Positions 21,441 to 57,064 of a stretch of DNA of 64,000 nucleotides are shown one piece after another. How positions within the stretch are numbered: position 1 is the stretch's first letter; each line of letters opens with the position of its first letter. Source of the stretch: a virus; IMG/VR virus record IMGVR_UViG_3300044716_000732, positions 23,023 to 87,022 of that record. One strand, written 5' to 3'. Position numbers and translations under genes: made by a program. A model generated the notes under the pieces. The model did no database searches. It had not been told where the DNA came from and saw only the letters and a program-made list of their open reading frames with translations.

Positions 21441-23372
21441 ATGTCATATACTTTAAAAAACGATGTTTCTTCTGCTCCACTTAATTGTAATGTAGGTTAC
21501 AATAATAGCTGGATTCATGTTGATAATAATGCTGGTAGAGAGCTTTTTGCGCAAGCATCTTACATAACTAATTTTTCAGATATAAACATTAGTTTATCTG
21601 CCAGTGACCTAGACATAGGTTCGGTACATATATTAGATCCCGATAGCGGATTAAAAGCTGATGTTGTGCCAGTTGGAATTGGAATTGGTGCATTAAGAGT
21701 TATAAGTCAAGATTTAGAATCTTTCGAAGATGATGTAACTATTGGTGATAGATTAGGAAATTTTGCATCGGTATATGCTCCTTTAAGCGCACTTAAAGTT
21801 TATAATACAAATCCTATATCTTCTGTAGATATAACAAATATTGTTACAGTAAAGGCATCTAATACATTTCCAATATCTGGATCTGTAACCGTTTTAAATC
21901 CAGTAACTTCTGTTAATGTTTTAAATTTTCCAACACAATTAACTGCTATTAGTATTACTAATCAATTGACAGGAATAACCATTTTAAATCCAATAACATC
22001 GGTTAATGTTTTAAATTTTCCAACACAATTAAGTTCTGTTAGTATTTTAAATCCAGTAACATCGGTTAATGTTTTAAATTTTCCAACACAATTAAGTTCT
22101 GTTAGTATTACTAATCAGTTAACAGGAATAACCGTTTTAAATCCTGTTACTCAAGTTACTACATTACCACAACCAACTCAACTTGATGCATTTGGTAGAT
22201 TAAGAATATCTTCCCCTATGACTTTGTTTGATTCTTCACATCGTTACAAGGATAATAATTTATGGTCTACACTATCCGCAAATGGAGGTTCGGTTTCATT
22301 TAATGCATCACAGGGATTAATGAATTTAAACGTTACTAATACAGCAGGAGCAAGCGCAATAAGAGAAACAACAAAGGTATTTTCCTATCAACCCGGTAAA
22401 TCCTTGCTTGTCATGAATACATTTGTCATGGCTTCTTCTGCTACCAATTTAAGACAGAGGGTAGGATATTTCGGAGATCAGAATGGAATATACTTTCAGT
22501 TAGATGATGGTAATATTAGTATAGTTAAAAGATCCATTGTCACTGGTTCTATTGTAGAAAGTGTAATTTCTCGTTCTAATTGGAACGGTGATAAGCTAGA
22601 TGGAACTGGCTCTTCTGGTATAGTTTTAGATATAACCAAAGCTCAAATTTTTTGGATGGATATTGAATGGTTGGGAGTAGGAACAGTAAGAGTTGGTTTT
22701 TGTATTAACGGGCAGTTTATTGTTTGTCACTCATTCCATCATGCTAATATTATAGATTCAACTTATATTACTACAGCTTCCTTGCCTTTAAGATATGAGA
22801 TTATTAATAAAGCAGCTACAACAGGTGGATCTAAAACACTAAAACAAATATGTTCTACTGTTATTTCCGAAGGTGGTTATGAATTAAGAGGCTTACAACA
22901 AGCAGTCTCTATTCCAATAACTTCACCAAGAACGTTTGCGGTAGCTGGTACGTTTTATCCAATCATTTCAATTCGATTAAAAACAACTCCAGACAGACTC
23001 GATGCAATTATTATTTTAACTGCTTTATCAATACTTGGACAAGGAAATGGCATAAATTATAACTGGCAGGTTAAAGCAAGTGGAGTCACAACAGGAGGAG
23101 ACTGGGTTGATGCTGGGGTTGACAGTGCCGTTCAATATAATATTACAGGAACAAGCTATGCAGGAGGAAGAATTTTAGCAAGTGGATTTTTAAATGCTTC
23201 TAATCAAGCTTCTCCAAATTTGGATATTCTTAAAGAAGCTTTGTTTAAGTTTCAATTAGAACGAAACAATTTAACAAAAACTCCTTTTGAATTAACTTTG
23301 GTTGCTGCATCAGATACCACTAATGGTTCTGGTATGTTTGCTTCTATGGATTGGGAAGAAGTTAGTCGTTGA
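21441..23372 (+). CDS. Probable virion structural protein with internal tandem repeats
   Basis: Beta-rich; repeats of LNPVTSVNVLNFPTQL (21890-22160); DAFGRLRIS and EWLGVGTVR lectin-like C-domain; TAAGTA at 21429. Confidence 0.7.
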   Translation: MSYTLKNDVSSAPLNCNVGYNNSWIHVDNNAGRELFAQASYITNFSDINISLSASDLDIGSVHILDPDSGLKADVVPVGIGIGALRVISQDLESFEDDVTIGDRLGNFASVYAPLSALKVYNTNPISSVDITNIVTVKASNTFPISGSVTVLNPVTSVNVLNFPTQLTAISITNQLTGITILNPITSVNVLNFPTQLSSVSILNPVTSVNVLNFPTQLSSVSITNQLTGITVLNPVTQVTTLPQPTQLDAFGRLRISSPMTLFDSSHRYKDNNLWSTLSANGGSVSFNASQGLMNLNVTNTAGASAIRETTKVFSYQPGKSLLVMNTFVMASSATNLRQRVGYFGDQNGIYFQLDDGNISIVKRSIVTGSIVESVISRSNWNGDKLDGTGSSGIVLDITKAQIFWMDIEWLGVGTVRVGFCINGQFIVCHSFHHANIIDSTYITTASLPLRYEIINKAATTGGSKTLKQICSTVISEGGYELRGLQQAVSIPITSPRTFAVAGTFYPIISIRLKTTPDRLDAIIILTALSILGQGNGINYNWQVKASGVTTGGDWVDAGVDSAVQYNITGTSYAGGRILASGFLNASNQASPNLDILKEALFKFQLERNNLTKTPFELTLVAASDTTNGSGMFASMDWEEVSR

Positions 23373-27276: not shown

Positions 27277-28287
27277 ATGAAACTCGCATCAATTGAAATC
27301 ATAAAAAATATAAAAATTCACCCTAATGCGGATTCTTTAGAAATCGCAGAAGTTTTGGGCTGGCAGACAGTGGTAAAAAAAGGAATCCACAAAGAGGGAG
27401 ATAAGGTTGTTTTTATTACGATTGATACTATTGTTCCTCGTCGGGAATGGTCTGAATTTTTGGTAGATCAAAAAAATCCAGATAAGCCTATTAGATTAAA
27501 AAACATAAAGCTTCGTGGAGAATATAGTTCTGGTTTGGTTATTCCTTTGATTGAATTTCCTTTACAATTCGAATCTCTAGATGTTGGTGATGATGTAACA
27601 GAAATACTTGGTATTCAAAAGTATGTAAAGGAAATCCCTGCTAATCTTTCTGGTGAAACATTAGGAGATTTTCCCACAAATATCATCTCAAAAACAGATG
27701 AAGACAATGGTTTGAATGATCCCAAGTTGGTTGATGAAGTGTTTAAAGTTGATAAAGAACTTACGATAAGTCTAAAAATAGATGGATCTTCTTGTACTTT
27801 AATAGTAGAAGATGGAAAATTGATACAAGTTTGTAGTAGAAATCTTTCTAAAAAAGAAACTGAAAATTCTACATTTTGGAATGCAGCAAAAAAATTAAAT
27901 ATACCAGAAAATTGGACGGGCGTCATACAATCGGAAATGGCGGGTAATGGAATACAATGTAACAATTTAAAAATCAACGAGATAAAATTATTTGTATTTC
28001 AAATTTATACTGATAATAAATATATGACATATGATGAAATGAAGCAATTTTGTGATAATCATTTAAAATGCGATGTTGTTCCATTGATTTGTAAACTTAA
28101 AATAGAAGATACAATAAATCTTTGGACGGATCCTTTAAAGAAATTACAAGAATTGGCAGATAAACAAAAATATTCAAGCGGACTTGATGCGGAGGGAATT
28201 GTTGTAAGACCCTCTAGTTATATCAAATCTAGAAATTCTAGAAGACCATTAGGATTCAAATTGATAAACAGAAATTATAAAGATTAA
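27277..28287 (+). CDS. RNA ligase, DRB0094/Rnl2-like with N-terminal OB domain
   Basis: HPNADSLE, LRGEYSSGL, motif I KIDGSS, VCSRN, EGIVVR, FKLIN. Confidence 0.88.
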   Translation: MKLASIEIIKNIKIHPNADSLEIAEVLGWQTVVKKGIHKEGDKVVFITIDTIVPRREWSEFLVDQKNPDKPIRLKNIKLRGEYSSGLVIPLIEFPLQFESLDVGDDVTEILGIQKYVKEIPANLSGETLGDFPTNIISKTDEDNGLNDPKLVDEVFKVDKELTISLKIDGSSCTLIVEDGKLIQVCSRNLSKKETENSTFWNAAKKLNIPENWTGVIQSEMAGNGIQCNNLKINEIKLFVFQIYTDNKYMTYDEMKQFCDNHLKCDVVPLICKLKIEDTINLWTDPLKKLQELADKQKYSSGLDAEGIVVRPSSYIKSRNSRRPLGFKLINRNYKD

Positions 28288-29219
28288 TCCTTTATACATT
28301 TTTCAACTACACATCTAGAAATATTTAATTTTTTAGATATTTTATTTATTGTAATATTATTATTATATTCTTTTAAACAAAAGTCACATAACTCTTTATA
28401 TGTTTTGAATTGAAAATTAGGTATTCTTTTTAAAATTTTAGACATAGTTTGATTTTTATTTTCTCCCACATTAAATCTTTTTAATATATTACGAATAACA
28501 ACACCACTTAAATTAATTTTAGATCCAATGCTCCAAATACCCAATCCCTTTTTACTTTCTTCTAAACAAAAATTTTCAAGTTCTTCATAACTATTAAAAA
28601 TAAAATTTTTATGATGTTTTTTAATTTGTCTCCAAGAATTTTCTTTACATGTTTTTTTAGCATGTTCCCTTAATGCTTTTAATCTTTCAACACTTAATTT
28701 TCTTCCAATTGATTTTTCTCTTATTTTATTTTTTGTAATATCAGTATGTTTTTTTCCATACATTCCATTTTTAATACCTTTTCTTGCAAAAAAATTTGAA
28801 TAATTCTTCTTGAAAAATAAAATTTCTCTACTATTCATTATTCTATATTTTTGATTATCTTCTCTTTTTTTAAACATAGCATAAAATGCTTGCATAATAG
28901 AGTTATTATTCGTTATCATTCTCAATGCTAAAATTTTATGACAAATTAAATGTTCTTTCAGAGTTAAAAAAACAATGTTATTTATATCATTTTTTGAATA
29001 TTCATCTGAAATACATTTTGGTAAAATATGATGAGCTTCATAGTTATATTTTCCATATTTTTTATTGACATATTTTTTTGCTGAATATATCTTTTCATAA
29101 GAAAAAACTATTCTATTACTTGCTCTTTTTATTATTTTTTCATATATACGATAATACTTTTGTGAATTCGATAAATTTTTTATTTTTTCTAAATAAATGT
29201 TCATAAAACTACTTATCAA
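28284..29219 (-). CDS. HNH homing endonuclease with NUMOD3 motif
   Basis: EAHHILPKC...NIVFLTLKEHLICH; NGMYGKKHTDITKNKI. Confidence 0.8.
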   Translation of the reverse strand: MISSFMNIYLEKIKNLSNSQKYYRIYEKIIKRASNRIVFSYEKIYSAKKYVNKKYGKYNYEAHHILPKCISDEYSKNDINNIVFLTLKEHLICHKILALRMITNNNSIMQAFYAMFKKREDNQKYRIMNSREILFFKKNYSNFFARKGIKNGMYGKKHTDITKNKIREKSIGRKLSVERLKALREHAKKTCKENSWRQIKKHHKNFIFNSYEELENFCLEESKKGLGIWSIGSKINLSGVVIRNILKRFNVGENKNQTMSKILKRIPNFQFKTYKELCDFCLKEYNNNITINKISKKLNISRCVVEKCIKD

Positions 29220-30146
29220 ATTTAGATGTTTTTGGAATAGGTATTCAACATAATTATTGACATTTTTAAAATTTAATGTATTGTATAAAGACTAATATGT
29301 ATAAACTGGAAAGAAAAGAAAACGAAGGTGTGTGGTATGAAGTAATGCTTTCTCCATTTAAAACAAGGGAAGAAATTAAAGTATATCATGCAAAGTACAG
29401 CAAATATTATCCTAATACAAAAACAACTTATAGAGTTACAAATCTTGAAACAGGAGGAATGAAAGTAATACGATGAATGTTTTTAAAGAATTGGAAGAGG
29501 TAGGATACACTCAAGTCAAATTAAAAAATATGACCGATAATATTTTGGATGCATATAAAAAAAATCCAAAAGAATGTGAAAGACTTTTGAAAGAATTAGC
29601 AAAGATAGATCACGAATTAGAAGAATTGGATAAAGAATTTTCAAAATATCTATGAAATTTATAGAAGTAATTTTAGAAAATAGTAAACTTAAAGAAGCAA
29701 AACTATTTGCTCCTGCTAAAAAAGCTGCTAATAATCCAGAAACAGGTATTACGATTCAAAATAAATCTGCTTATCATGTTATTAAAGATTGTGCAAATAT
29801 AACAATCAAGTATCTTCCTCTTTATGTATTTGCACATTATGAATGTTTTTTTACAGAATTGTCTGGAAAATTTAAAAGAAAAGATATAGAAGAATTTGTT
29901 TCTGGTGCAGAGAAAGATATTGTTTTAAATCAACTTCTTATTCTTATATTGGAACTAAATGGTGGATTGGTAGGAGAGACTCCAAAGATTTCTGTTTCGG
30001 ATAATAGCGATTTCGAAATTAATGATCCTTATGGTGAATATGGAGTTGGGTTTGAAGAAATACCAAATAAAAATGAAAATAATAATATGTCTGTTGTAGA
30101 TAGTTTATGTAAACTTTTTGATGTGAAGTAAGATAAGTAAATTAGT

Positions 30147-30521
30147 ATGAAAAACAAAGATCAAATATTACTGGAACAAGCATATTCAAAAATTTTAAAT
30201 GAAAATTTAGATAAATTTCAACCACATGATCCGGAAATGCAAGAATTATCTAAAGTAGGTCTTGGTGAAGAATATCCAGAAGATGAGAACGTTTCCTCTG
30301 ATGATAGAAATTGGTATTTCGATGAAGATGGACAACCACCATATAATGTAAAATATTCTAATAGAACGTTTAATATTAGAGGTAAAGAAGTATTGATCAA
30401 ACAAGAAATGGATCAAGACGATGATAGTAGGTGGTATTATATTTCTCTTGTTGATCCAGAAACAAAAGAACGTGTTTTTAATGATGTTACAGAAGATCAA
30501 ATCAAAAAAATGTTTTTTTGA
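30147..30521 (+). CDS. Acidic late protein with KDQILLEQAY leader
   Basis: MKNKDQILLEQAYSKILNE; TAAGTA at 30134. Confidence 0.75.
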   Translation: MKNKDQILLEQAYSKILNENLDKFQPHDPEMQELSKVGLGEEYPEDENVSSDDRNWYFDEDGQPPYNVKYSNRTFNIRGKEVLIKQEMDQDDDSRWYYISLVDPETKERVFNDVTEDQIKKMFF

Positions 30522-30524
30522 TTG

Positions 30525-30553
30525 TTGACATTTTTGAAAAAATAATATATAGT
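30525..30553 (+). promoter_or_regulatory. sigma70-type promoter of the stable-RNA operon
   Basis: TTGACA-17-TATAGT. Confidence 0.8.
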
Positions 30554-30650
30554 CTTTATTAGATAGTTGGTTCCCGATGAGCCAATGGGACTGAGAATAC
30601 TCGGTCGAATACAAAATCGGAAATTGATATTTGACATTTTAATTTTAGTA

Positions 30651-30732
30651 GACCCGCCATGCCTCTCACTTGACATGAGTAGTTTCTAAAGTACACGGCA
30701 ACTAAGTAAGTTGATGCACACTTTGGCGGGTG
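30651..30732 (+). ncRNA. Unidentified small structured RNA
   Basis: Ends pair (ACCCGCCA / TGGCGGGT); non-coding; inside the tRNA/tmRNA operon. Confidence 0.55.
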
Positions 30733-30738
30733 TTTCTT

Positions 30739-30894
30739 TTACCAAGCGCAGATGCTCGCAAAGCTCTACCGCGATGGGTGACAATGCAATGTTTCCGGAA
30801 ACAACATTTAACCCATAGGGAACTTCTTCGATTATTATGTATGCGTCCATAAGATACTTGGAGGACTAATGATTAGAATGAGAGGTCTTGGTAA
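30739..30894 (+). ncRNA. Unidentified structured RNA
   Basis: Closed by TTACCAAG / CTTGGTAA; internal ATGGGT/ACCCAT and TGTTTCCGGAAACA stems. Confidence 0.5.
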
Positions 30895-30905
30895 TGATTT
30901 TAAAA

Positions 30906-31091
30906 ACTGGAATGTTGGTTTAGAAAACCATCATCTAAGGAGTGGGAGATTGGACGTGGAGAACTGGTAATTAGTATGGACACAATTCAAATAAGCCATA
31001 CATCCTATTTATAGGTACGGAGATGACCGTGAATTGCGTTTCACAGGACGAAGAAATTCGTAACCCCTTTAGCTTTAAAAGGCACACCAGT
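30906..31091 (+). ncRNA. RNA resembling the 23S rRNA L11-binding (GTPase-associated) domain, with an insertion
   Basis: CTGGAATGTTGGTTTAGAAAACCATCATCTAAGGAGTG...CGTAAC...GCACACCAG versus 23S CCAGGATGTTGGCTTAGAAGCAGCCATCATTTAAAGA..GCGTAATAGCTCACTGG (recalled). Confidence 0.6.
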
Positions 31092-31105
31092 AAAATTTTG
31101 ATAAG

Positions 31106-31245
31106 TCGGACGGGAATAGTGTGCTGTGCTGTTCTTAAAAAGCTCACCGTTGCAGACTGTCACCAGACTCGATTAGGCAGAGGGTAACAAGTAATCTTCG
31201 TCCAACGTGAGAAAAACACGGTAGCCAATGAAGAACTTTCTGGTA
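31106..31245 (+). ncRNA. Unidentified structured RNA
   Basis: GTCGGACG / CGTCCAAC and ACCAGA / TCTGGT complementarities; no ORF. Confidence 0.4.
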
Positions 31246-31263
31246 ATGATCTTTGAAATTTAT

Positions 31264-31674
31264 GGGGGTGAAAGGATTCGACATTGGATTCTAACTTCTC
31301 AGTGCATGTAGAGGATGATAGTTGGCCTCTTTAATAATCTATCAAAAACTAAATGCAGAAGACAATACTTCTGATCTTTTAGACGAAGCTGAATACATCT
31401 TCAACAATGCTGACGAGTTCCTCGCTGGCGTTGAAGACTACGCACTCGCCGCCTAAGAGCCTAACGGTAATCCTCTAAATCCGTTTTGAATTGCAGAGGT
31501 TTTGACGATCTGTTAGAAATCATGTAAAAAATATTACGGAGTTTGTTGTAACTTTAAAACATCAAGGTTGGTTAATGTGCCAAGATACCTTATAAATCAA
31601 ATACATTAAAGCATGTGTAGATCTGAAAGTAAACGTTTAATGGACACGACTATCGTATGTCGTCACCTCCACCA
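31264..31674 (+). ncRNA. ssrA: tmRNA
   Basis: 5' GGGGGTGAAAGGATTCGAC; 3' CACCTCCACCA with G3:U Ala identity pair; tag ORF 31355-31456 ends YALAA*. Confidence 0.95.
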
Positions 31675-31679
31675 TTTTT

Positions 31680-31767
31680 GGGTAGATAGACTCGTAAGGG
31701 GCGAGAATTGGCTGTAGACCAATTGTTATTTTTAACCCTGTCCGTTCGAATCGGACTCTGCCCACCA
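31680..31767 (+). tRNA. tRNA-Tyr(GTA)
   Basis: Acceptor GGGTAGA/TCTGCCC, anticodon arm ATTGG-CTGTAGA-CCAAT, long variable arm, TTCGAAT loop, CCA. Confidence 0.9.
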
Positions 31768-31774
31768 TTTATAA

Positions 31775-31849
31775 GTCTCTATAGTGTAACGGTTAGCACA
31801 GTACCCTTTCACGGTATTAGTATCGGTTCAAATCCGTTTAGAGATGCCA
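31775..31849 (+). tRNA. tRNA-Glu(TTC)
   Basis: GTCTCTA/TAGAGAT, GTACC-CTTTCAC-GGTAT, TTCAAAT, CCA. Confidence 0.9.
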
Positions 31850-31931
31850 AATTTTGCGGAGTCGAACCAAACCCCTTTGGGCTACCAACCTAGAGGGGTT
31901 TATTTATTTAAAATAAAGATAAATATTTTAT

Positions 31932-32531
31932 ATGAAAAAGTTATTTTTATTTTGTTCTATTTTATTATTTTTAAACAGCTGTACTGTTTATACAGAAAAA
32001 CAATCTGAAGCATTATCTCGTTCCGTTTATGCTACCAAAGATTCTTTAGACAACGCAAGATTAGACTTAGCCGATACCTATGCTAATGAATCAACAAGAA
32101 TAGTAAAACCACCTAAACAAAGAATAGATATTAAACCTGTTTATAAAAAGAATATTGATAATATTTCAAGTCAAAGCAAAGTAAAACCAACAATTATAAA
32201 CAAACAAAGAGTTTTAATAATACCCGAAAAATATAAAAACGATACGGTTGTTGTTGTAAGCTCCGAAGAATATCAACAACTCTTAAAAGATAAAGAAACA
32301 TACGAACAAATAGAAAAAGATATTGCAAATATAACAGAAACAAAAATAGCAGTAGATCAGGAATTGATTCGTCAAATGGAATATAATGATAAAATGGTTA
32401 GAGATTTGAATATAATGCAGAAAAAATTGATAGAAAAAGATCTTGCGATTTTACAAAGAAATATTGCAATAATATTTTTACTTGTTATAATGGGTGGAGC
32501 AACTTATCTAAGAATAAAAGGAATACTCTAA
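31932..32531 (+). CDS. Lipoprotein with C-terminal TM (u-spanin-like topology)
   Basis: MKKLFLFCSILLFLNSC lipobox; C-terminal TM IAIIFLLVIMGGATYL; late promoter. Confidence 0.55.
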   Translation: MKKLFLFCSILLFLNSCTVYTEKQSEALSRSVYATKDSLDNARLDLADTYANESTRIVKPPKQRIDIKPVYKKNIDNISSQSKVKPTIINKQRVLIIPEKYKNDTVVVVSSEEYQQLLKDKETYEQIEKDIANITETKIAVDQELIRQMEYNDKMVRDLNIMQKKLIEKDLAILQRNIAIIFLLVIMGGATYLRIKGIL

Positions 32532-33260
32532 TGGATGAAATTATAAAAAATTTATCAAAACTATATCCAGAATTTGAATTTAAATCAAATTTATATTCTA
32601 ATGCAACCCAAAGACCAGTTGTTCAGATATATAATGTATTAAGTTGGCTGAATCAAAACCCAACAGAATTAGAAGAATTAACCGATCAACAATGGGATAA
32701 TATAGAAGTAAATGAAGTTAATATTGGAAAGTTATGGGATTGTTTAATAATGAATAGTGGGGAAATTTCATTTGATGGTGATATAAATTTCGATGCTTCT
32801 TTAGACAAGTATAATAATTTTTAAAAAAACTTGCATAAAATTTTAAACATGTTAAAATTTTTATCTTATGAAAAAAGATGAAAAAATTCTTTCACAAGAA
32901 ATGATAGATTATTGTGAAAGAGCTATTGAAGAGTCTAAAAAATTGTGTGATGAAATTTTAGACTCTTATAAAGGAAACTTAGAACAAAAAGAATTTCTAA
33001 AAGAATTATCAAAAATGATGGAAATTGATAATATGATTAAAGAAAAAATAAACAATTTATCTTTTTCTGATATTAAAAATGATAATAATATTTTAGATGA
33101 AATAGATGAAATGTTAAAACGGAAATTTAATATTTTAGATTTTTTAAATTTTACAGATGAAAAACAATTGGTTTGATATTTTTTGTTGGGTTACACTAAC
33201 GGTAGCAGCATTATATACTACCTTATATGCAACATATGTAATGTTAGAAGTTTTATTAAA

Positions 33261-33521
33261 ATGAAAACACTAAAAGAAAAAATTATAGATATATTAAATG
33301 AAGATGAAAATTTTTTATTAGCAGATGGATTTGATGATGCATTTGTTGGTATAGGTAGACAATTCGGTAGACCTATTGCTGTATATGATAGATTTGAATG
33401 TATAGAATTATTGATAAAAGAAGGAATGTCCGAAGAAGAAGCCGAAGAGTATTTTCAATTTAATGTAGAAGGTGCATGGGTTGGTGAAAATACTCCTATA
33501 TTTTTAGAAAAATTATATTGA
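33261..33521 (+). CDS. Conserved phage hypothetical protein
   Basis: ADGFDDAFVG...AVYD...EEAEEYFQFNVEGAWVGENTP; start at ATG 33261. Confidence 0.75.
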   Translation: MKTLKEKIIDILNEDENFLLADGFDDAFVGIGRQFGRPIAVYDRFECIELLIKEGMSEEEAEEYFQFNVEGAWVGENTPIFLEKLY

Positions 33522-35067: not shown

Positions 35068-35784
35068 ATGAATGGTAATATGAAAACATTAAACAAAAAC
35101 AAACCTTTATTATTTTTAGGAGATCATCATGGAGATTGGCGATTTCTTTTTGATATCATCAGAGAAAAGAATATTGAAAATTGCAATATTATTTCTGTTG
35201 GAGATCTTGGTATAGGGTTTAAATATAAAAAAGAATCCGAATATTCTCAATCAGAGAAACTTAGCAACATGTTCAAAGAAAAAAACATCAATTTTTATGG
35301 TATTCCGGGGAATCATGATAATAGATTCTTTTTTGAAGGAAAAAATAGAATTGTCTATGAAAATTTTGAACTAATTGAAGATTATACTGTTGCAGAATAT
35401 GATGGCAAATCTATTCAATTTATTGGCGGTGCTGTTTCTATTGATAGAACTTCTCGTAAAGAAGGTGTTTCATATTGGGAAGACGAAGCTGTTAAATTAG
35501 ATAGAGATAAATGCAAAGAAGTTGATATTCTTGTAACCCATACTGCTCCGTCTTGGTGTTTTCCACAACAGTTTAATGAAATGGTTTATGGTTGGGCATT
35601 AGAGGACGCATATCTTATAGGAGATCTTAGTAATGAAAGAGCAATAATGGATGAGATTTTTAAACTATGTAAACCAAAACTTCATTTATATGGTCATTTC
35701 CATAGTTCTTGGACTGAAGAGATTAATGAATGTAAACACAAACTATTGAATATTAATGAAATTTGGGAGATGCGTAATGATTAG
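35068..35784 (+). CDS. Calcineurin-like metallophosphoesterase
   Basis: GDHHG, VGDLG, GNHD, GGAVSID, VTH, GHFH. Confidence 0.88.
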   Translation: MNGNMKTLNKNKPLLFLGDHHGDWRFLFDIIREKNIENCNIISVGDLGIGFKYKKESEYSQSEKLSNMFKEKNINFYGIPGNHDNRFFFEGKNRIVYENFELIEDYTVAEYDGKSIQFIGGAVSIDRTSRKEGVSYWEDEAVKLDRDKCKEVDILVTHTAPSWCFPQQFNEMVYGWALEDAYLIGDLSNERAIMDEIFKLCKPKLHLYGHFHSSWTEEINECKHKLLNINEIWEMRND

Positions 35785-50317: not shown

Positions 50318-50352
50318 GTGAACTACCAGTAGGCTAAAGACCTACTGGCTTC
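50318..50352 (-). mobile_element. IS200/IS605-type right end / omegaRNA 3' hairpin
   Basis: Minus strand GAAGCCAGTAGG-TCTTTAG-CCTACTGGTAGTTCAC: hairpin ending in TTCAC. Confidence 0.75.
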
Positions 50353-51593
50353 AGGGTATAAATTCTACCCTTCTTTTTAAGAACTTCAACGCCAGTGCCT
50401 CTAGAAACCTTTGAGATCTCCTTTGGTCTTACCTTAGCTCCATTCCTGTTATCGACAGTTCCTGCCGATTGAATTGCTAATGCTCTTCTTAAAATATTCC
50501 TACTTGCATTAACATCTCTGTCATGTATTGTGTTGCATTTAGAACAAGTCCAAGTTCTTTCATCCAATGAAAGAGATTCTTTGGTGTGATCGCAGCAACT
50601 ACATGTTTTGGAAGACGGATAGAAACGATCAATTACAATCACTTCTTTATCATTCCATTCTGCTTTGTACTTTAATTTGGTCACAAAGCTCGACCATGCT
50701 ACGTCTGATATTGCCTTAGAAAGTTTATGATTCTTAACCATCCCTTTCACGTTCAGGTTTTCTATTGCAATCAGATCATAGTCTCTTACTAACTTAGAAG
50801 AAACTTTATGTTGCATATCATTACGAGAATTGGTTATCTTCTCGTGTACCTTTGCAACAGCTATTCTAGCTTTGTCTCTTCCTTTTGATCCTTTTTGTTT
50901 TCTACTTAAAATTCTTTGCTTTTTAGCTAACTTAGCTTCATACTTCTTAGTGAACTTCGGATTACAATATCTCTGTTCTTCAGAAGTAATAATGAAGTCT
51001 TTCAACCCCAAATCAATTCCAATGCTCTTTCCTGTTTTCTTGTGTTTAATTGGCTTTTCCGCAACGCACAGGAAGGAAATGTAGTATTTTCCTGTAGTTA
51101 ATTTGGAAATGGTTGCTGATTTAATTTCTCCTTTTAGTTCTCTATGTTTAACAAATTTTAATCCTTCTTTGAACTTTGGTATTTGAACTACATTTTCTTC
51201 TTTTAAAGAAATATGTTGAGGGATCTGAAACGAATTTTTATTCTTTTTTGATTTAAAACGAGGGAACTTAGATTTCTTTTTAAAAAAATTGCCATAAGCT
51301 GTTTCCAAATTCATTAGAGTGGATATAAGAACTTGCGAATTAACTTCTTTTAACCATTCATATCCTTCTTCTTTTTTCTTAGCTACTAAATTTCCTGCAC
51401 ATTGATTAAAATTCAACGTTGTTTTGTTTTCCAAATAATGTTTTTGCTTTTCAGATAAAAAGTGATTATAGATGAATCTAGAACATCCAAAGTGCTTTGC
51501 TAAAAGAACTTCTTGCTCCTTTGTAGGAAGCAAACGGAACTTAAATGCTTTATGCATTTCGTTCTCTTTTAGTTCTTGACATTTCCCGATCAT
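50334..51593 (-). CDS. tnpB: TnpB RNA-guided nuclease (no TnpA in window)
   Basis: KAFKFRLLPT HTH, FGCSRFIYN, RuvC GIDLG / IENL / DRDVNA all intact, Zn finger CSCC..CSKC. Confidence 0.95.
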   Translation of the reverse strand: MIGKCQELKENEMHKAFKFRLLPTKEQEVLLAKHFGCSRFIYNHFLSEKQKHYLENKTTLNFNQCAGNLVAKKKEEGYEWLKEVNSQVLISTLMNLETAYGNFFKKKSKFPRFKSKKNKNSFQIPQHISLKEENVVQIPKFKEGLKFVKHRELKGEIKSATISKLTTGKYYISFLCVAEKPIKHKKTGKSIGIDLGLKDFIITSEEQRYCNPKFTKKYEAKLAKKQRILSRKQKGSKGRDKARIAVAKVHEKITNSRNDMQHKVSSKLVRDYDLIAIENLNVKGMVKNHKLSKAISDVAWSSFVTKLKYKAEWNDKEVIVIDRFYPSSKTCSCCDHTKESLSLDERTWTCSKCNTIHDRDVNASRNILRRALAIQSAGTVDNRNGAKVRPKEISKVSRGTGVEVLKKKGRIYTLKPVGL

Positions 51594-55336: not shown

Positions 55337-57064
55337 TGAAAATTTCGAAGAATAGTTTAGGTGGACAGAACAACCATGGACGCATGAGTAGCGCACGTTC
55401 GAGTCGTGCTTCTTCGACCATTTTTAAAAAATTACAAAAGTTAGATAGAGAGATTACAAAACTCTATAAAATGATAACTCCTTTTGGAGCTTATAGTTTT
55501 GATTTTGGAAAGCATAGATTCATGAAACTTGAAGAACAAATCAAAAAACTTGACTTGAAGAGAAAAGAAGTTAGACTTGAGAGAAAGAGATATAATTTAT
55601 GAACGACAATGATGTATTTTTATTTTACAAACACAAAGTAATTCGCTGGTTTCCTAATGTTAGTATTGATCAGGGATGTGCATTTATTAAGGAAAATGTT
55701 GATGCAGGTAATTTTAATATGATGCCAGATACTCCATATTTAAATGAAGAAATGGAAAAATATCCAAATGACGTTCATGTTTTCGGAAAATTAGAAGCAA
55801 TGAAAAAAGTTTAACTAGAAAGAAATATAATTTATGACAATACATACAGCAAAAGTAAATGGTGAGCTTTTAAGAGCTGCGCGTGAAGAAAATTGGACTT
55901 GGGAAGAAGCACAAGAAAATTTAAAACAGACATATGGAGAAGATGCTGTTATAGAATTAGTTTCAAGTTTTTGTGGAAGTAGAAATAATCCTTTGGATGA
56001 AGTTGAAAAACATGAAAAACACAATTAATGCCATAAAACTTGATTATGAAAACCATTATGATCTTTCATTAAAGATATATGAATTTCTTAAAAATATAGT
56101 AGAAAATAAAAAAGATTGCGAAAGAAACACTTTCGTTGCAATTCCTAAGATTAGGAAACCTTATTTTTGGCAATTTAACAAAAAGAAAAAATATAAACAA
56201 GAATGCGATTCGATTTTTGAAGATTTTAAAAAATGGAATGAAGAATCAGAAAACTTGATTAAAAAGAAAGAAATATAATTTATGAAAAATAAAATTACAG
56301 TAAATTTATACGCTAAAAAGTACGGTGAAAACGAACTAGCTAAAATGATTCTTAATAAAGAATTTGGCTTTGAATTTTCAATTGAAAGCGATACAGAAAG
56401 AAGCCGAAGAATTCTTTCTTTTGAAGAAGCACTATCTTTAAAGGATAGTTTAGATCAGGCTTTTAGTGATTACAAAAAATATAGTTTGTGAAATTTATGA
56501 TCCGCGAATTTGACTACTACAGTAACGAATCCCACAATTGTCTTGTGATCTGTCCTTACTGTCATTCAGCATATCAAGCAGAAGCAGGAGATTATTCCGA
56601 AGAGGTGAGAGAAGAAAAATGCCAAAATTGCAGACACACATTTATTCGTTGGGACGAATTTGAGGTCACATATTATACTAAAAAGAAAAAATAAATTATG
56701 GATGATAATTCAAAATATCTATTAGCTTCTGTTAAAGAAGATTTAACATATATACAGAACAATATTTTCAATAAACCAAAGAAAGTTGAATGCGAATGTA
56801 GACCATTTGGTAACGATTATATAATATTCTTTCTTACTAAAACGCCTAATGTCTTTCACAGAAAGATGATGGAATTGGTTTTTGGTTTTAAATTTAAAAA
56901 ATATGGACAACACAATAATAAACATTAGACTTTTTGCTTGGCATTTTCAAATTGAAAGAGGTTCATGGAAACCTAAAATTTCTTATAATTCATATCATAA
57001 ACAAAATAACTTTAGTGATGGTTATTTTAGAATTTATAACTTTTTTGGATACGGAAATTAAAAC

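Follow-up and report, generated by a model that had tools for sequence, protein, structure and literature searches.

The DNA analysed here is a stretch of 64,000 nucleotides (nt) from the IMG/VR virus record IMGVR_UViG_3300044716_000732 (positions 23,023 to 87,022), hereafter the window. On its plus strand, an RNA element of 186 nt (30906–31091) lies in a 1.3-kb stretch that, from a promoter-like site to a terminator-like hairpin, apparently contains RNA genes only, among them a transfer-messenger RNA (tmRNA) and two transfer RNAs (tRNAs). A preliminary description made from the sequence alone had taken the element for a non-coding RNA imitating the GTPase-associated centre (GAC) of 23S ribosomal RNA (rRNA), the domain to which the ribosomal protein uL11 and thiostrepton bind and which is contacted by the translation GTPases. 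The element belongs to a large family of phage RNAs and is a self-closed copy of the 23S GAC, and we consider it highly probable that it is a real structured, expressed RNA of this family. Positions in the rRNA follow the E. coli 23S numbering, which was matched to residue names in PMC2952862, PMC8661411 and PMC6239185.

Anatomy and family of the GAC-mimic RNA

The element is closed by a stem of five pairs (A-U, C-G, U-A, G-C and G-C) between 30906–30910 and 31087–31091, assigned by covariance-model alignment and RNAalifold. This stem corresponds to the tip of helix 42 (H42), its 5' strand to ~nt 1051–1055, and the A1103 equivalent directly precedes its 3' strand (together 31086–31091). The A1056 equivalent (30911) and the helix 43 (H43) hairpin (30912–30934) follow the 5' strand and were placed by covariance-model alignment and family pairing (30911–30934). 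H43 pairs 30912–30914 with 30932–30934 and 30917–30919 with 30927–30929 under a 7-nt loop, UUAGAAA (30920–30926), in which the A1067 equivalent is found at 30922 and G1071 and C1072 are absent. The junction (30935–30943, from the family alignment A1) consists of the 1082–1086 pair, C30935–G30939, with UAA inside, and of G-A-G-U at 30940–30943, the equivalents of G1087, A1088, G and U. An inserted domain of 124 nt (30944–31067), defined by a 20-sequence subfamily alignment and RNAalifold, then interrupts the 5' strand of helix 44 (H44) between the equivalents of 1090 and 1091. It is closed by a helix, Hx (GGG 30944–30946 with CCC 31065–31067), and has hairpins at 30974–30979/30996–31001, 31004–31007/31012–31015, 31029–31033/31040–31044 and 31048–31051/31058–31061. 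The covariance-model alignment assigns 31068–31085 to a UUU linker (31068–31070) and the H44 equivalent (31071–31085), which comprises A31071, the pairs G31072–C31083 (1091–1100) and C31073–G31082 (1092–1099), A31084 and C31085 (1102). H44 has an extra pair, U31074·G31081, and the loop UUAAAA (31075–31080); measured against the hexaloop G-U-A-R-N-A, G1093 is lost and the equivalents of A1095, A1096 and A1098 are kept. The lengthened H44 hairpin is also present in the minimum free energy fold of the single sequence.

The architecture and most unpaired bases are those of the 23S GAC (E. coli nt ~1051–1108). The closing stem, the H43 stem, the loop start U-U-A-G-A-A with A1067, the 1082–1086 pair, the UAA triloop, G1087–C1102, A1088 and the pairs G1091–C1100 and C1092–G1099 are all shared. 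Unlike the rRNA domain, the window RNA has a gene of its own (~186 nt) within a phage RNA operon and is self-closed, with no other rRNA around it and with the 124-nt insert; UUAAAA replaces the hexaloop G-U-A-A-U-A, H44 has one pair more, and G1071 and C1072 are missing. As comparison rRNA we used locus L064, a true bacterial 23S piece of 2.9 kb (Rfam large-subunit (LSU) model, 2213 bits, model positions 1–2522). The compensatory differences claimed in the preliminary description, whose quoted letters agree with the sequence, are borne out by L064: its closing stem CCAG/CTGG reads CTGG/CCAG in the window, and its H43 GGC/GCC reads GGT/ACC. The junction pair 1082–1086, U-A in L064 and C-G in the window copy, is a further compensatory change that had been missed. 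Hairpins had correctly been seen at H44, where the Hx-closed domain occupies the 5' strand. The 3' boundary has to be moved: CGTAAC (31059–31064), taken for part of H44 in a match beginning at 31059, is the end of an insert hairpin (ACGAA/TTCGT) and the start of the Hx 3' strand, the H44 equivalent beginning only at 31071. As for the overall closeness to 23S rRNA, the GAC architecture stands, but with its 7-nt H43 loop and altered H44 loop the copy is less faithful than had been thought.

Taken alone, the window copy has a weak or borderline likeness to rRNA, and the significance comes from the family model. The 5' half (30907–30943) has 28 identical letters in 39 columns with L064 (2 gaps) and the 3' half (31071–31090) has 13 in 20 (2 gaps), while blastn-short against L064 retrieved a single 14-nt H43 match (E 1.7) and otherwise chance 9- to 10-mers. 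The pattern ATGTTGGNTTAGAA-N0-4-NCCATCATNTAANGA occurs once in the window (30912–30941, +) versus 0 matches in 100 shuffles. At E ≤ 10, neither the LSU models nor any other Rfam family touch 30906–31091, and a distant-mode blastn search with 30520–31270 found no match among 50,697 phage records. A 23S rRNA gene or gene fragment was rejected as the identity of the element, since there is no LSU match at that cut-off and the flanks have no similarity to L064, which covers model positions 1–2522. As had been noted before, no other rRNA lies nearby; at gathering score, Rfam finds only tmRNA and tRNA in the 64-kb window.

A scan of IMG/VR for the H43 motif retrieved 83 loci. Eleven of them are near-identical to the window, in 29 found by regular expression plus L066 an exact rRNA-type H43 gives way to non-rRNA sequence downstream, one (L064) is the true 23S gene, and the remainder are coding or chance matches. 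The non-rRNA loci share a 3' motif (TTTGG-CGTARNAG-CACAC) that is followed by the reverse complement of the bases preceding H43; therefore, the rRNA H44 hairpin loop is present there as well and the two ends pair. Scanning for the 3' motif revealed at least 120 further viral contigs. Among 140 instances extracted, 98 were distinct, and 94 of these were analysed after L074, L141, L189 and L187 had been dropped as misbounded or false. A 5' end was not found by script for 46 instances of the 3' motif, and the covariance model recovered those included in the 100-source run described below. The 3' motif is invariant by construction in the loci found with it, and it is equally conserved in loci found via the 5' motif alone. 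The family layout runs from the closing stem (H42 tip) through A or G at 1056, H43 with a 9-nt loop, the 1082–1086 pair over a UAA triloop and G1087, A1088, G and U to Hx with a variable insert (about 30 to over 300 nt), and then through UUU, H44 (G1091–C1100, C1092–G1099, loop G-U-A-R-N-A) and A-C-A to the 3' strand of the closing stem.

Alignment A1 comprises 38 canonical members, none of them from the window's subfamily. In A1, 98.5% of cells are paired, compared with 70.7% in shuffles, and double changes occur in 17 of the 23 pairs. The H43 pairs are 100% paired and four of six covary; Hx covaries in all four of its pairs; the pair 1082–1086 is UA in 21 members, CG in 14, AU in two and other in one; and G1087, A1088, G and U are invariant. 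Covariation across the family extends to the closing stem, although its pairing is partly built in, as extraction selected for its first 4–5 pairs; the other helices were not used in that selection. In seven members (L132, L090, L183, L190, L120, L158 and L192) an extra domain follows the loop-closing pairs in the 3' strand of H43, replacing the insertion at the H44 site or adding to it; a second insertion site is thus compatible with the GAC core.

Covariance model R1 (154 positions) was built from the 38 phage copies of A1 only. In the 64-kb window it has a single match, 30903–31094 (+), of 53.2 bits (E ~ 5e-15) that spans model positions 1–154 of 154. Over 100 sources it matched all 94 candidate or positive ones and none of six chance-match control loci. 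The 95-sequence alignment fitted to R1 has 93.5% of its cells paired (68.6% when shuffled), with double changes in 18 of 22 pairs. In the true 23S piece L064, R1 finds the GAC only (64 nt, 50.3 bits; next best below 5 bits), and in a whole bacterial genome of 4.3 Mb it has one 64-nt match. Since a model of phage copies only finds both the window element and the true GAC, imitation of the GAC by the family is confirmed in quantitative terms. Together with the covariation, which is strong in the family, this upholds the proposed imitation of the uL11-binding domain.

R1 also matches in 48 of 151 sampled genomes of one phylum, frequently with more than one match per genome, as would be expected of rRNA operons. 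Among the matches listed for these genomes, lengths are 47–65 nt, plus one 134-nt set, and only the 134-nt set was verified as 23S. The latter, in genome G142, had been considered as rRNA with an insert and was rejected: it is ordinary 23S, the extra length being an alignment artefact. None of the 151 sampled bacterial genomes yielded a phage-type copy with an Hx insert. Rfam searches of twenty family loci retrieved only tRNA, tmRNA and one true LSU, so that no Rfam family matches the GAC-mimic RNA. No published description of a phage RNA copying the GAC was found in the full-text literature, a search that left most subscription journals uncovered and is not proof of absence; the family is apparently undescribed.

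Sequence identity with the rRNA GAC might also be expected of a functionless piece of host 23S captured by the phage, or of a cis-acting ribosomal-protein leader controlling a downstream gene. Such leaders are a known kind of rRNA imitation: autoregulatory ribosomal-protein leader RNAs are cellular, imitate rRNA binding sites and act in cis on the mRNA of their own protein. The window RNA is likewise an off-ribosome copy of a ribosomal protein's rRNA site. Unlike leaders, it has no downstream ribosomal-protein gene, lies among phage tRNA genes and is a far more literal copy. Both possibilities are extremely improbable and contradicted by several observations. There is no flanking rRNA; family members always have their own closing stem and inserted helix, with covariation over 95 sequences; the element is flanked by RNA genes and not by an open reading frame; and a uL11 gene is present in none of 40 family-bearing phages.

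A remodelled variant with a conserved insert

In the ribosome, H43 and H44 are joined by contacts of C1072 with C1092/G1099, of G1071 with G1091/C1100 and of A1070 with A1096 (PMC2952862). The GAC domain folds autonomously, and L11 binding requires its tertiary fold (PMC6239185). Among the 94 distinct members, positions 1071–72/1092/1099 read GC/C/G in 71 and AC/C/G in one, and in six they read GU/U/A, all three partners of the C1072 triple changing together; 4/94 were unparsed. Position 1061 is free to vary and A1067 is replaced in a few members, while A1070 hardly ever changes and A1095 is retained; rRNA has the same conservation pattern at these positions (PMC6239185). Judged by these patterns of sequence, the tertiary logic of the GAC is retained in the family.

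The window copy is a derived variant in which G1071 and C1072 are gone, H44 is one pair longer and its loop is changed. Canonical members (for example L007, L049, L002, L208 and L233) have the same layout, closing stem, Hx, UUU linker, tRNA/tmRNA setting and strand but differ in their 9-nt H43 loop with G1071 and C1072 and in their 6-nt H44 loop. A 7-nt H43 loop combined with an 8-nt H44 loop region is found in 12 of the 94 members, all of the window's subfamily, which was itself collected with a 15-mer from the insert. Some other subfamily members are canonical. The pairs L208/L110 and L233/L257 share the whole insert but combine it with a 9-nt loop and an H44 of the canonical form and with a covaried UAGC/GCUA stem, and L285 shares the insert in a canonical copy truncated by the end of its contig. 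A second anchor-based scan for the subfamily retrieved nothing beyond this L285 and a chance match, L276. There are further forms: L057/L244 have the 7-nt loop and the extra pair, yet the loop GUAAAA; L245/L255 have a CUAGAAA loop and a GGU/AUC stem; and a more distant group (L025, L209, L226, L239, L260 and L253) has the U/U/A triple. R1 scores are 82–90 bits for canonical relatives with the same insert (L208 89.9, L233 81.5) versus 51–68 for the remodelled ones, and canonical family members reach 80–134 bits.

There is no sign that the 7-nt H43 loop was copied from a host rRNA variant. An exact-pattern scan of the genomes of 185,579 species with GTTGGNTTAGAAANCCATCAT gave one match, a chance hit in a Pullulanibacillus contig outside any GAC context.

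A copy with these losses could also be a relic of a canonical ancestor, its family function gone, carried as a neutral passenger in the RNA operon. Consistent with decay are the loss of G1071 and C1072, the altered H44 loop and a model score that is, together with that of L245, the lowest in the subfamily. We nevertheless think decay quite unlikely. The two loop changes are coupled: every distinct sequence that has one also has the other (12 of 12), and neither occurs elsewhere in the family, although these 12 are close relatives representing few independent events. Pairing is kept at the inserted H44 pair, for which relatives, and likewise RNA-library contigs (G>A at 31081), have either U·G or U-A, and the remaining core positions and the closing stem are intact. 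Moreover, the variant is represented by 12 distinct sequences on different contigs, compared with two distinct canonical sequences of the same insert plus the truncated L285, and it is present in RNA-library contigs of four studies.

The insert is a conserved four-hairpin domain with compensatory changes: in the alignment of 20 subfamily sequences, RNAalifold predicts 43 pairs, of which 12 have compensatory double changes, and these fall, among others, in three of the four hairpins. The insert is common in its entirety to the window copy and to the canonical relatives L208, L233 and L110. A motif of the type CACCCCGUAACUGGUAAGG (A1 columns ~170–195) is found in the otherwise unrelated inserts of 12 of the 38 canonical members (L185, L049, L104, L007, L100, L181, L193, L173, L180, L165, L142 and L112), and the window insert holds the related AACUGGUAAU at 30962–30971. 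This recurring motif might dock onto the GAC core as a tertiary element.

The conservation of the insert gives some weight to the idea that the GAC-like three-way junction serves only as a stable folding platform, with function residing in the insert or in the whole RNA and unrelated to ribosomal ligands. Besides its compensatory changes, the insert persists while the GAC loops are remodelled, its size differs widely across the family, and a motif containing AACUGGUAA recurs in the inserts of unrelated members and of the window. However, in 71 of the 94 members the H43 loop, the H44 loop G-U-A-R-N-A, the junction and A1088 match real rRNA nearly letter for letter, beyond what a generic junction needs, and the 1072/1092/1099 triple covaries as a set. 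A mere scaffold therefore seems unlikely.

The RNA operon and hints of its expression

The candidate operon would start at a promoter-like site (TTGACA-17 nt-TATAGT, 30525–30553, +; 11/12 matches) and end at a terminator-like hairpin with a T-rich tail (31869–31901, +), both from a consensus scan only. One RNA-library contig starts near 30555, close to the promoter-like site, which is a weak hint. All RNAs of the operon are on the plus strand. Its first member is an abiF-motif-like RNA (30653–30731; Rfam RF03085), 175 nt upstream of the GAC mimic. Directly 5' of the mimic, a conserved element, recognised from the sequence and its relatives, is closed by ACCAAG ... CTTGGT (30742–30893). It is kept in L233, L244 and L234, the inner hairpin being variable, and matched no Rfam family. 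Inside this element are a palindromic hairpin, GUUUCC/GGAAAC, and a variable one, which is missing from L233 and L257 by deletion. Directly 3' of the mimic lies a second conserved structured element (31100–31245). It was delimited with MAFFT and RNAalifold in 13 distinct orthologues, in two of which its helix ACGG/CCGU reads GUGG/CCAC, and no Rfam family matched it.

The tmRNA gene (31264–31674; Rfam RF00023, 100.1 bits) starts 173 nt downstream of the mimic. Translation places its tag reading frame at 31355–31456; the tag is unusually long, with 33 residues and ALAA at the end. ARAGORN missed this tmRNA despite its Rfam score of 100 bits. Genes for tRNA-Tyr (31680–31767) and tRNA-Glu (31775–31849) follow, both found by ARAGORN and by the Rfam tRNA model. 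These neighbours, together with the covariation in 95 related sequences, agree with the earlier placing of a non-coding RNA within a tmRNA/tRNA operon. By blastn-short there was no sign that the flanking RNAs are copies of the part of 23S present in L064, which ends at model position 2522, short of the sarcin-ricin loop. Upstream of the operon by 3 kb, an RNA ligase gene (27277–28287, +) encodes PHA02142 OB-fold and RNA_ligase domains; such an enzyme fits RNA repair following tRNA-directed attack.

This setting is common in the family. A tRNA or tmRNA gene was found in the short flanks examined of 56 of the 94 members, and all 151 such genes are on the strand of the mimic. The distance to a tRNA is at most 50 nt in 32 of 94 members, and within 10 nt there are 15 upstream and 12 downstream. 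The RNA would be cut out of a polycistronic transcript by tRNA-processing nucleases, because family members in other phages abut tRNA genes at 0–10 nt. Phages are known to carry tRNAs, tmRNAs and a few ribosomal proteins.

Parts of 30550–31900 are contained in 24 public runs, 20 of them recorded as RNA libraries, and all of these are labelled freshwater or lake metagenomes. Contigs of four metatranscriptome runs from four studies cover 30555–31640 with at least 90% likeness, and one contig of 733 nt bridges 30640–31234, taking in the abiF-like RNA as well as the mimic with its two adjoining elements. In the RNA libraries, contigs are much deeper on the tmRNA. The flanking coding DNA (28500–30500 and 32000–33500) is almost uncovered in these runs, which were chosen by words from 30550–31900, so that this is not evidence of selective expression. 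The source record is 87 kb long, with an estimated completeness of ~43%. A relative, G032, is a complete genome of 203 kb with terminal repeats and bears a sister variant of the GAC-mimic RNA; the host phage of the window RNA is therefore large, a freshwater phage of roughly 200 kb.

The abiF-like RNA scores 29.8 bits with RF03085, below the gathering score of 37, because of a 47-nt insert in its terminal loop. Its orthologue in the relative L208 (977–1013, −) reaches 49.6 bits and is above that score. The abiF-motif RNA RCd22 binds directly to the AbiF toxin and thereby neutralises it in trans (PMC12373285). We found no Abi_2/AbiF gene in the window record (~43% complete) or in five relatives, two of them complete, and the phage abiF-like RNA is therefore an orphan, a candidate for a phage-borne imitation of an antitoxin.

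Possible action off the ribosome

We consider it fairly likely that the GAC-mimic RNA works through GAC mimicry at all, acting in trans, off the ribosome, and offering its surface to host proteins that recognise the GAC. This view is taken because the ligand-facing surfaces are reproduced, often letter for letter, in a way useless to a generic junction, and because the RNA is self-closed. Only one ligand, uL11, is known to bind the isolated GAC domain tightly. L11 co-crystals with the GAC have been cited (PMC6239185), and the bacterial toxin Tre23 ADP-ribosylates H44 over bases 1095–1098 (PMC8661411). Our preferred, though tentative, reading, which we hold somewhat short of an even chance, is that the RNA forms a decoy or pseudo-substrate particle, probably with host uL11, that would draw GAC-directed host factors off the ribosomes translating phage mRNA. 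The diverted factors would most plausibly be defence effectors attacking the translation apparatus. The abiF-like RNA, the tmRNA, the tRNAs and the RNA ligase gene favour such an anti-defence role and fit the maintenance of translation under attack. Like the abiF-motif RNA RCd22 (PMC12373285), the GAC mimic is a small structured RNA that could neutralise a host protein by direct binding, but it imitates a ribosomal target site and not an antitoxin. Extended further, the whole 1.3-kb operon might be a battery of RNA countermeasures, in which the GAC copy traps a new class of GAC-directed defence enzymes, aimed as Tre23 is, and the coupled loop remodelling is the trace of an arms race; this larger proposal is doubtful. 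If it held, rRNA-domain decoys would be a new category of phage anti-defence, and the existence of GAC-directed immune effectors would be predicted.

Several observations count against a decoy particle. By our own reasoning, a decoy far scarcer than ribosomes would compete poorly with them unless it bound more tightly. No partner encoded by the phages came to light: a uL11 domain was found neither in the window record nor in any of 40 other phage records with the family, of which 22 have a completeness of at least 90%. With G1071 and C1072 lost, which speaks for a weakened tertiary fold, and G1093 changed, the window copy may bind uL11 poorly if the stapled fold is needed, and uL11 binding is less certain for this remodelled copy than for its canonical relatives, as its model score (53 bits) is also well below those of relatives with the same insert. 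Folded singly, the sequence does not stand out (z = −1.04; an equally good fold is reached by 34 of 200 shuffles). The metatranscriptome contigs are a hint of expression in which ends and strand are not shown and DNA contamination is possible. Finally, the abiF-like RNA was rejected as a general companion of the GAC-mimic family: it is restricted to the window's lineage, occurring in six of 41 records, all of the window's subfamily and none over the cut-off, and in none of the 35 records outside it.

Because uL11 is required for RelA activation, a simpler role as a pure uL11 sponge, the leading proposal of the preliminary description, can be envisaged, in which free or exchangeable uL11 would be titrated, ribosomes poor in uL11 could not activate RelA and the stringent response would be muted. 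The high affinity of uL11 for the isolated domain speaks for such a sponge, as does the retention in the family of the tertiary-fold nucleotides needed by L11. On the other hand, the window copy is without the two stapling bases, and to deprive ribosomes, present in large excess, of their uL11 during a single infection cycle seems, by our own reasoning, inefficient. The window record (~43% complete) has no stringent-response gene, a RelA_SpoT domain being absent from it. On balance, the sponge is improbable, and we prefer the decoy or pseudo-substrate particle.

A free-standing, faithful copy of a functional rRNA centre is spread over at least 120 viral contigs. If the RNA works by imitation, phages would have to neutralise or exploit some host activity directed at the uL11 stalk base, be it uL11 itself, a defence enzyme or the stringent response, and the RNA would be a natural, ready-made ligand for fishing that activity out. 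A natural experiment is provided by the window copy, with its stapling bases gone and its H44 longer, and the canonical relatives with the same insert: setting one form against the other is a direct test of what the partner requires of the GAC fold.

Other genes near the RNA operon include one for a calcineurin-like phosphoesterase (35068–35784, +) and one of the TnpB/IS605 OrfB type (50334–51593, −). At 55346–55420 (+), ARAGORN reports a tRNA of undetermined identity with the four-base anticodon gacg, which could be a frameshift-suppressor-like tRNA or a miscall.

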